DNA of 64,000 bases from Minisyncoccia bacterium (GTDB taxonomy: Bacteria; Patescibacteriota; Minisyncoccia; Phycocordibacterales; Phycocordibacteraceae). Below the pieces are notes generated by a model. That model had not been told where the DNA came from and searched no databases. It was given only the letters and a program-made list of their open reading frames with translations. Made by a program: the position numbers and the translations under genes. How positions within the stretch are numbered: the stretch's first letter is position 1; each line of letters starts with the position of its first letter. Of this stretch, positions 21,633 to 22,715 are shown piece by piece. Location of the stretch: positions 76,173 to 140,172 of the forward strand of contig JBEKII010000002.1 in the NCBI GenBank assembly GCA_050011835.1, read 5' to 3'.

Positions 21633-22715
21633 TCATGAATGCATTTTGATCCAAAAATCATTCCTCAACCTTTCACTAACCCGGTACACATCAGCATGAG
21701 ACAATATCCCTAAATATGAATTGAGTGACGCCTCCGCCCGTTCTTTTGATACCGCACCTCGTCTATAATCAGAAATGATACGTCCGAGTTTTCGATACAT
21801 CCGCTTTTCAGTTTTCTTCCGCAACAGTCGGAAATGCGGAAAGGCGATGTATCCCAGAAAATCGACGCCCCTGCTGTATCGCCGTATCTCGACCTTGTCG
21901 GGGTGCAACTCAAGCTTGAGCCGTTCACGCAAGAAATCCCGCATTGGTTGCAGAAATGTTTTCAGCTTTTCCGAATCGTTGCTCACAATCAAAAAGTCGT
22001 CAGTATAGCGAACATAGTGTTTAATATATAGGTCATGCTTCACAAACTGATCAAATTCGTTCAGATAGATATTGGCAAAAAGCTGGCTCGTGAGGTTGCC
22101 AATTGGCAATCCTTTTCTCGGTGTATTTTTACTCTCTCTCTCTCTCTCTCTCTCTCTCTCTCGACAGCCCGCCGCCTCGTAACTTTCGATAATTTCTCTC
22201 ATAAGCCAGCAGGTGTCGGGATCGGTGATGCGTCTTTCGAGAATGCTGAGCAGAACATCGTGGTTAATGCTGTCGAAGAATTTCCGTACATCGCACTTAA
22301 GCGCATAGCACGATTGCGTACCGTTGTGGCTCACAGCGCGGAGCATCTGCGTGAGTATTTCAACGCCTTTATGCGTTCCTTTGCCTATGCGACACGAAAA
22401 GGAGTTGGGAATATACGTCGGCTCAAAGATTGGATTCAGGGCCGCAAACATGGCGTGATGCAGCACTCGATCGCGCACGTTCGCTTTGTATATATGCCGA
22501 AGCTTGGGATCCTGGATATAAAAGTCAGTATATGGCCCGTGCCGATAGCGCTTGGTTTGTAAATCGCGATGCAGGTCAAAAATGTTATGTTCAAGCTCCT
22601 TCTCGAATGCGAGCACGTCTTTCTTCATCCGCTTCCCGCGTTTGAATTCATCCCACGCGTGGAAGAGCGCCTCAGGAGAGACGATTCTTTCGAAAACACG
22701 GTCATATTTTTTCAT
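21633..22715 (-). CDS. Diversity-generating retroelement (DGR) reverse transcriptase
   Basis: RT domain with YTDD (YxDD) and the DGR-specific motif-4 variant IGNLTSQ (IGxxxSQ, not group II QGxxxSP). N-terminal ALFHAWDEFKRGKR block. Start taken as MKKYDRV; an upstream Met at 22754 is the alternative. Confidence 0.8.
   Translation of the reverse strand: MKKYDRVFERIVSPEALFHAWDEFKRGKRMKKDVLAFEKELEHNIFDLHRDLQTKRYRHGPYTDFYIQDPKLRHIYKANVRDRVLHHAMFAALNPIFEPTYIPNSFSCRIGKGTHKGVEILTQMLRAVSHNGTQSCYALKCDVRKFFDSINHDVLLSILERRITDPDTCWLMREIIESYEAAGCRERERERERESKNTPRKGLPIGNLTSQLFANIYLNEFDQFVKHDLYIKHYVRYTDDFLIVSNDSEKLKTFLQPMRDFLRERLKLELHPDKVEIRRYSRGVDFLGYIAFPHFRLLRKKTEKRMYRKLGRIISDYRRGAVSKERAEASLNSYLGILSHADVYRVSERLRNDFWIKMHS
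22132..22162. repeat. (CT)15 dinucleotide microsatellite inside the RT ORF; encodes (RE)5 on the minus strand
   Basis: 31 nt of uninterrupted CT repeat read directly from the sequence. Confidence 0.9.

Follow-up and report, generated by a model that had tools for sequence, protein, structure and literature searches.

The sequence analysed here (the window) is a 64-kb stretch of contig JBEKII010000002.1 from a Minisyncoccia bacterium. It contains a diversity-generating retroelement (DGR) whose reverse transcriptase (RT) gene harbors a long dinucleotide repeat. The element is a DGR, as it comprises an RT with a motif 4 of the [I/L/V]GxxxSQ type, an adenine-biased pair of template repeat (TR) and variable repeat (VR), and an Avd accessory protein (Table 1). 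The initial annotation had reported a perfect 31-nt CT tract inside the RT gene. Tandem Repeats Finder recovered exactly this tract at 22132-22162, with a period of 2, 15.5 copies and 100% matches, in agreement with direct reading of the sequence, and the gene carries the RVT_1 domain in the company of Avd and TR/VR. It is the sole long dinucleotide tract of the window, the others of at least five units being three (CG)5-6 runs. Searched as a joint pattern, the tract and the downstream motif 4 codons gave one match in the window, against 0.00 expected from shuffled sequences. The only other assembly of the window lineage, an independent Joint Genome Institute contig (L242), shows an identical tract of 31 nt.

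On the coding strand the tract is a (GA)n repeat that encodes RERERERERE, residues 185 to 194 of the RT. This run is followed by SKNTPRKGL and then by PIGNLTSQ (residues 204 to 211), which places it nine residues ahead of motif 4, just upstream of the IGxxxSQ motif as originally described. It is flanked by motif 3 (KCDVRKFFDS, residues 140 to 149) and motif 4, and the YTDD motif (residues 237 to 240) is found further downstream. The catalytic YTDD is thus lost in either out-of-frame state. As anticipated in the initial annotation, gain or loss of one unit shifts the frame in silico: removal of one unit leads to a stop at residue 195 and addition of one unit to a stop at residue 219, both ahead of the catalytic motif, and changes of three units in either direction preserve the full length. 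The (GA)15.5 tract is therefore a perfect, non-triplet, frame-shifting intragenic repeat, as expected of a contingency locus.

Table 1. Features of the DGR locus in the window.
Feature	Position	Strand	Basis or remark
(GA)15.5 microsatellite (CT on + strand), proposed slipped-strand switch	22132..22162	-	Tandem Repeats Finder, sequence
RT motif 4 PIGNLTSQ codons (DGR-type [I/L/V]GxxxSQ)	22083..22106	-	starts 25 nt downstream of the tract
Catalytic YTDD codons, residues 237-240	21996..22007	-	downstream of the tract
DGR reverse transcriptase gene, 360 aa, in frame (on)	21633..22715	-	RVT_1 Pfam, E=7.3e-29
bAvd accessory gene, 116 aa	22718..23068	+	PF22296, E=1.4e-19; head-to-head with RT, start codons 2 nt apart
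Perfect 12-bp hairpin, CAAACAGCGTCC-TGAC-GGACGCTGTTTG, 4-nt loop	23068..23095	-	directly after TR, at avd stop/3' end; read from sequence
Template repeat (TR), sense strand is the RT strand	23109..23239	-	inverted repeat pair with VR
DGR target gene, 301 aa	23676..24581	+	open reading frame carrying VR at its 3' end
Variable repeat (VR), 131 nt, 79% identical to TR, 3' end of target gene	24449..24579	+	repeat pair

The repeat encodes a variable loop of the reverse transcriptase

The closest solved structure to the window RT is that of the Bordetella phage RT, bRT (PDB 8ub7, E=3.6e-47). The alignment of the two proteins breaks at the tract, where bRT has about 5 residues (172 to 178) and the window RT has 25 (177 to 201). 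In the AlphaFold2 model (mean predicted local distance difference test score, pLDDT, of 81.6), residues 181 to 198, located between a helix and the motif 4 strand, fall below 50. The tract-coded loop is thus predicted to be disordered and tolerant of length changes. Since it is modelled with low confidence and varies in length, changes of three units should be tolerated.

Distribution of the repeat among related reverse transcriptases

We performed a frame-blind scan of metagenome contigs and GTDB species-representative genomes for (AG)7 or longer tracts with PIGNLTSQ codons 15 to 45 nt downstream. A (GA)n tract occupied this position in at least 238 loci, at least 120 of them on metagenome contigs and at least 118 in GTDB species-representative genomes. 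Among the matches listed, nearly all named genomes with the tract belong to Patescibacteria, otherwise called the candidate phyla radiation (CPR), and represent many candidate phyla; tract lengths range from 14 to 71 nt with a median of 22. The initial annotation had named one invariant repeat number, together with a non-repetitive sequence in homologues, as the pattern that would speak against a switch. That pattern was not observed, as tracts of very different length occupy the same site and relatives differ by 2-nt steps.

The repeat is not a general feature of these enzymes. The closest RTs that could be aligned (56-82% identity) include many with an RE run of 4 to 11 residues at this position and others without, and the repeat is absent in 88 of 119 close RT homologues. 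In a tree of 119 RTs, built with the loop removed, its presence changes at least 11 times, compared with about 28 times when labels are shuffled. This absence and turnover, together with the disordered, length-variable loop and the drifted TR/VR pair of the window itself, would fit a non-adaptive hazard, in which a microsatellite arose in a tolerant loop and persists by its own expansion, the out-of-frame copies being recently inactivated and heading to loss. A hazard that knocks out 80% of the copies should nevertheless be purged through synonymous interruption, arginine having six codons and glutamate two. Tracts of up to 71 nt instead remain perfect across lineages in which the RT halves share only 35-40% identity with the query set.

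In some relatives the same loop position is instead occupied by poly-G runs of 9 to 18 nt, between homologous flanks. These were found through truncated proteins ending in glycine runs. The in-frame copies have G9 and G11, and the out-of-frame copies G10, G14, G14 and G18; in one poly-G lineage the RT is 75-83% identical to that of the window. Because two unrelated slippery repeats share one site, it is the mutability that appears to have been retained, and not the RE peptide, and this occurrence of two repeat types also argues against a chance hazard. Alternatively, selection might act on the RE-rich segment as a charged linker, for instance to contact RNA or Avd, with the repeat merely encoding it. 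This alternative would account for the fixed position of the RE run in many RTs and for the 4 to 11 residues tolerated in frame. It does not explain why the encoding is a perfect dinucleotide repeat without synonymous variation, why relatives have poly-Gly or nothing at this site, or why the segment is predicted to be disordered and is missing in bRT. Selection of the RE peptide was rejected, as poly-G replaces it and most copies are out of frame (see below), and we give this explanation almost no weight.

Several observations on individual loci accompany this survey. The poly-G lineage has an 8-bp inverted repeat (AATCTTGT ... ACAAGATT) immediately upstream of its G run (L243, 810-860; L239, 2311-2364). 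A few tract-bearing loci (L131, L144, L183, L186, L199, L132, L179 and L147) are in metagenome-assembled genomes (MAGs) that bear the labels Gammaproteobacteria, Bdellovibrionales or Actinomycetota. These could be CPR contigs with a wrong bin or label, or the tract may genuinely occur beyond CPR. Three MAGs each contain two distinct tract-bearing DGR RT genes, with all copies out of frame: JBEKTP01 (L124 and L160), CAVRXN01 (L154 and L198) and JAZDOH01 (L150 and L163). Locus L056 (JABAOC010062261.1, 1490 nt) has two copies of the tract and motif 4, of 21 and 23 nt, located 119 nt apart at 587-778 with an ambiguous base between them, and might result from an assembly that fused two length variants of a single sample. 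Finally, neither the (GA)n nor the poly-G pattern matched any of 2.9 million viral contigs (IMG/VR), and a phage origin of the tract-bearing RTs is thus not supported.

Tract length changes between near-identical strains

Hereafter, alleles in which the tract leaves the RT in frame are called on, and the others off. Three pairs of loci differ by a single GA unit and otherwise show 0 mismatches: L040 (20 nt, on) with L160 (18 nt, off) over 3660 nt, L202 (27 nt, on) with L186 (29 nt, off) over 4863 nt, and L059 (27 nt) with L183 (25 nt) over 4108 nt. Within one close clade, the frame is kept at tract lengths of 14 and 20 nt and lost at 16, 18 and 22 nt. The nearest relatives of the window sub-clade, 83-84% identical in the N-terminal half, have tracts of 17 nt (off), 23 nt (off) and 31 nt (on). 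Polymorphism in repeat number was thus found in relatives, in the three zero-mismatch pairs, and not in the two assemblies of the window lineage.

A further on/off pair differs in the variable repeat. L023 (on) and L002 (off) differ by 19 mismatches in the 132-nt VR and by none in the TR, and their TR-avd-RT region of about 2 kb is without substitutions, the only difference being the 2-nt indel. Retrohoming and tract change have therefore both outpaced a single ordinary substitution in the cassette. As judged from these sequences, slippage appears to be the fastest change in these cassettes. A VR that has changed between an on and an off strain, with the rest of the cassette unchanged, is also difficult to reconcile with a hazard that only inactivates the element.

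Out-of-frame alleles predominate and are intact

Reading frames at the loci from the matches listed were assigned by tblastn with the N- and C-terminal halves of the RT; an earlier motif-based frame call, which left 68 loci unclassified, had given the same proportions. All three frames occur. Among 220 classifiable loci, 175 are out of frame (99 by +1 and 76 by +2) and 45 in frame, and the in-frame class lies below one third (p=3e-5). Removal of redundancy leaves 42 loci in frame, 93 shifted by +1 and 70 by +2 (chi-square p=7e-5). The initial annotation had raised the possibility that the in-frame length dominates; in related loci it is on the contrary a minority (45/220, about 20%).

These proportions bear on the possibility that the lengths and off states are artefacts of stutter in library PCR or of assembly across low-complexity sequence. 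Dinucleotide stutter removes mostly one unit, and the commonest state falls short of the in-frame length by one unit; furthermore, some identical pairs may stem from overlapping read sets that were assembled differently, and L056 has a duplicated tract region. Stutter is however a minority product and should not change the consensus. Tracts of up to 31 nt, a length below that of the final k-mers used by common assemblers, have the same in-frame fraction (41/198), and the two independent collections agree (20/106 and 24/113). Moreover, a one-unit contraction would explain neither the +2 state (35%) nor the poly-G cases, and truncated open reading frames (ORFs) were called by gene callers in many projects. 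An artefact is therefore highly improbable.

The off alleles are not decaying. Both RT halves are intact in 98 of 134 off loci (73%) and 26 of 35 on loci (74%), and the frame that is open after motif 4 has a median of 155 codons in off and 154 in on alleles. The C-terminal half, which would be untranslated in off alleles, has a dN/dS of 0.149 in off-off pairs compared with 0.134 in on-on pairs; off alleles are thus under the same purifying selection (about 0.15) as on alleles. Clean adenine-specific TR/VR pairs were found at 86 of 130 off loci and 23 of 40 on loci, and among them pairs with zero non-adenine mismatches represent 43% in each class (37/86 and 10/23). Off copies on their way to loss should show extra stops or truncation, relaxed selection in the untranslated half and eroded TR/VR pairs. 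None of these was observed, and we consider the non-adaptive hazard to be very unlikely.

Split RTs are also prominent in protein databases. A search with the N-terminal half of the RT retrieved mostly proteins of 186 to 226 aa, and 106 of 120 matches were truncated and without motif 4, of which 84 end in or just past an RE run. The repeat is carried by 92 of 104 truncated RTs versus 31 of 119 full-length RTs (odds ratio 22, p=4e-22).

That most alleles are out of frame, yet fully under purifying selection and with clean TR/VR pairs, as if the frame mattered little, raises the question of recoding. A ribosome or RNA polymerase could slip on the repeat, by 2 nt in the case of (GA)n, where AGA and GAG codons re-pair perfectly, and by 1 nt in that of poly-G. 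Off alleles would then continue to give some full-length RT, and the tract would set RT dosage as a rheostat and not work as a binary switch. The tract reads RE in every frame, and the commonest off state has a TAA directly after the tract in many loci, at which a paused ribosome could slip back 2 nt onto an identical GAG. Furthermore, low-level, length-dependent suppression of (AG)n frameshifts was described in E. coli (preprint 10.64898/2026.04.01.715767), although this suppression is weak. Recoding does not readily account for the occurrence of all three frames, even among identical strains, as genes with programmed frameshifts hold one fixed relation between frames. The distribution of frames is also non-uniform, and since in-frame alleles are depleted the frame is not neutral. 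In addition, the 75 nt after the tract show no excess of RNA structure (mean minimum free energy z-score of -0.18 versus -0.06 in controls, p=0.19, with z<-2 in 4.9% of both). A classical programmed frameshift is thus not supported, the frame relation not being fixed and a downstream stimulatory structure being absent. Recoding as the explanation of the tract is unlikely, and it would be compatible with a slipped-strand switch as a modifier.

The four bases that follow the tract in related loci (22128-22131 in the window) lean towards TAAA, with T at 60% and A at 60%, 51% and 55%. They read E-S-K or R-V-N/K in in-frame loci, in two frames, and an immediate TAA in the third. This lean looks like conservation at the nucleotide level and not at the protein level.

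A putative contingency switch of targeted hypermutation

Since tract length changes between identical strains, and about four fifths of the copies are out of frame but intact, the tract looks like a reversible on/off switch of targeted hypermutation. The (GA)n repeat is thus probably a slipped-strand contingency switch on the production of the DGR RT that is mostly off in nature. The heritable switch proposed in the initial annotation finds support in the length-variant strain pairs and in the intact off alleles. In the proposed mechanism, a hypermutable repeat would sit in a disordered, length-tolerant RT loop between motif 3 and motif 4, and slipped-strand mispairing at replication would add or remove 2-nt units. 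One tract length in three would give a full-length RT, and the other two would stop translation ahead of the catalytic YTDD, so that no functional RT would be made and mutagenic retrohoming from TR to VR would halt. Each off state would be one slippage step away from the in-frame state, and the change would thus be both heritable and reversible. The contingency locus would thereby control a hypermutator: most populations would be off, with the current VR variant frozen, and rare revertants to the on state would give rise to bursts of diversification. Off alleles presumably make no active RT, switching within populations would occur at a high rate, and the arrangement is likely to have been selected for.

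Several points weigh against such a switch or limit it. The census counts rest on the matches listed and on a pattern that demands at least 7 units. The weak and partly repeat-length-dependent (AG)n frameshift suppression in E. coli (preprint 10.64898/2026.04.01.715767) indicates that off states may leak. The commonest state lies one unit short of in frame, which is the direction of PCR stutter, even if stutter should leave an assembly consensus unaltered. The depletion of in-frame alleles may reflect a cost of RT activity. As to the window lineage itself, both assemblies share one 31-nt tract, and the protein search with the N-terminal half returned nothing above 84% identity, and hence no strain-level variant of the window RT. 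Finally, the window RT is in frame and yet its TR/VR pair has 9 of 27 mismatches at positions other than TR adenines (18 of 27 at adenines, which make up 33 of the 131 TR positions). The pair falls below the 80% adenine criterion applied to the related loci, which have a mean of about 1 non-adenine mismatch per pair, and its 9 exceed those of most. The window pair thus does not look like the product of recent homing, which suggests either that no recent homing took place or that this RT is less faithful.

If off states do leak, the tract might act as a two-level device, a reading that we regard as rather unlikely. Slippage of the DNA would set three heritable states, and slippage of the RNA polymerase or ribosome would add a small, state-dependent amount of full-length RT. 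AGA and GAG codons could re-pair after a 2-nt shift, aided in many loci by the TAA found directly after the tract in the commonest state. Most cells would then run the DGR at a very low, tunable dose instead of being fully off, and in-frame alleles would be depleted because a high RT dosage is selected against. As a variant of this two-level device, the truncated N-terminal fragment ending in RERE may be a regulator that binds Avd or the DGR RNA.

Comparison with known systems

CT repeats are known from oipA and sabA of Helicobacter pylori, and poly-G tracts from surface and restriction-modification genes of Campylobacter, Neisseria and Haemophilus. Likewise, the type III mod1 gene of Mycoplasma bovis carries an (AG)n contingency repeat (preprint 10.64898/2026.04.01.715767). 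The DGR tract resembles such simple sequence repeat contingency loci in being a perfect, intragenic, non-triplet repeat built from the same units (AG/CT and poly-G), in varying in length between otherwise identical strains, and in having on and off alleles that both keep intact coding potential. It differs from them in that the gene switched is the polymerase of targeted hypermutation and not a surface antigen or methyltransferase, so that one mutator mechanism would gate another. In addition, the hosts here are uncultured CPR bacteria and not host-adapted pathogens, the off state dominates (about 80%), and the system is known from sequences alone.

The element shares with the DGR of Bordetella phage BPP-1 (bRT-Avd, 8ub7) an IGxxxSQ motif 4, an Avd protein, an adenine-biased TR/VR pair and a VR at the 3' end of the target gene. 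In contrast to BPP-1, it has a repeat loop of 25 residues where bRT has about 5, its avd gene is head-to-head with the RT gene, its TR is inverted relative to the VR, and it is cellular and not phage-borne.

The prfB and dnaX genes and the IS3-family transposases use programmed frameshifting or transcriptional slippage. As in these genes, a slippery sequence lies here between two conserved halves of an enzyme, with a stop directly after it in many loci. Unlike in these genes, frames 0, +1 and +2 all occur among close relatives, the tract length is variable and no stimulatory structure is found downstream.

CPR DGRs are described as having an avd-TR-RT core, classified as architecture B (the 'CPR set', B3), and often several non-adenine changes, in the survey of Wu et al. 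(2018, PMC5758913); the avd/RT layout of the window is consistent with this core. According to Roux et al. (2021, PMC8144416), the Patescibacteria DGR clade ('clade 2') is less active than average. The window element thus resembles the Patescibacteria/CPR DGRs of these two accounts in its host group, in its avd-TR-RT core, in frequent substitutions other than A-to-N, in being cellular and not viral and in an apparent activity below average. The text searched of both papers contains no mention of repeats, frameshifts or truncated RTs, and the surveys took putatively functional or detectable RTs. Literature searches on DGRs combined with phase variation, frameshift, slipped-strand mispairing, CPR and truncation likewise returned no repeat-switched or split CPR DGR RT, in line with the initial annotation, which knew of no DGR arranged in this way. 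Phase variation by intragenic AG/CT and poly-G repeats is already known and DGRs are well studied; the pairing of both appears to be new, as we found no prior description of it. It would be the first case found in which a contingency repeat, itself a mechanism of localized hypermutation, gates a second such mechanism, mutagenic retrohoming.

CPR bacteria are among the richest carriers of DGRs, and to our knowledge the control of DGR activity is largely unknown. Uncontrolled diversification would keep destroying working variants of the target protein. If the proposed switch exists, a heritable and reversible repeat in the RT gene would be a simple answer to this problem of control in a very large group of organisms. 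As about 80% of the elements are split into two ORFs, most will be overlooked or wrongly labelled in surveys that demand an intact RT ORF, and many carry annotations as partial or hypothetical proteins. The repeat switch could explain why the Patescibacteria DGR clade appears less active (PMC8144416).

Organization of the DGR and its surroundings

The mechanical ORF of the RT runs from 21633 to 22754; homologues and the database copy P0001, which comes from a Minisyncoccia MAG and is identical to the window RT, start at 22715. The head-to-head layout of avd and RT recurs in related loci, with start codons 0 to 5 nt apart (22713-22720 in the window; L239, L240, L241 and L245), and each promoter must therefore sit within the opposite gene. 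An RNA running from the TR into the RT gene is antisense to the entire avd gene. The hairpin that follows the TR could be an element of the DGR RNA or a bidirectional terminator. The target protein is a member of a CPR family that has more than 2000 proteins, with a length of about 296 aa and no Pfam match; an attempted fold assignment gave no fold. A scan of the window for further VR copies of the TR returned none beyond the one pair.

Beside the VR lies a segment of about 7.8 kb (24767-32566) that is absent from L242, which is otherwise 99.98% identical. Its junctions (24757-24766 and 32567-32576) share the core GCAACA[A/C]GGT. The segment contains unannotated ORFs and a PG_binding_1 protein, and its left junction falls within the gene of a large serine recombinase (24705..26267). 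The segment has the appearance of a serine-recombinase element that integrated recently. On the other side of the DGR, the 3' end of a tRNA-Met gene (21422-21493), at 21469-21498, has an 80% identical direct copy of 30 nt at 24737-24766, past the DGR target gene. Both copies finish in the GCAACA[A/C]GGT core. With copies of the tRNA end on both sides, the 3.2-kb DGR cassette is thus bracketed like a small island integrated at tRNA-Met.

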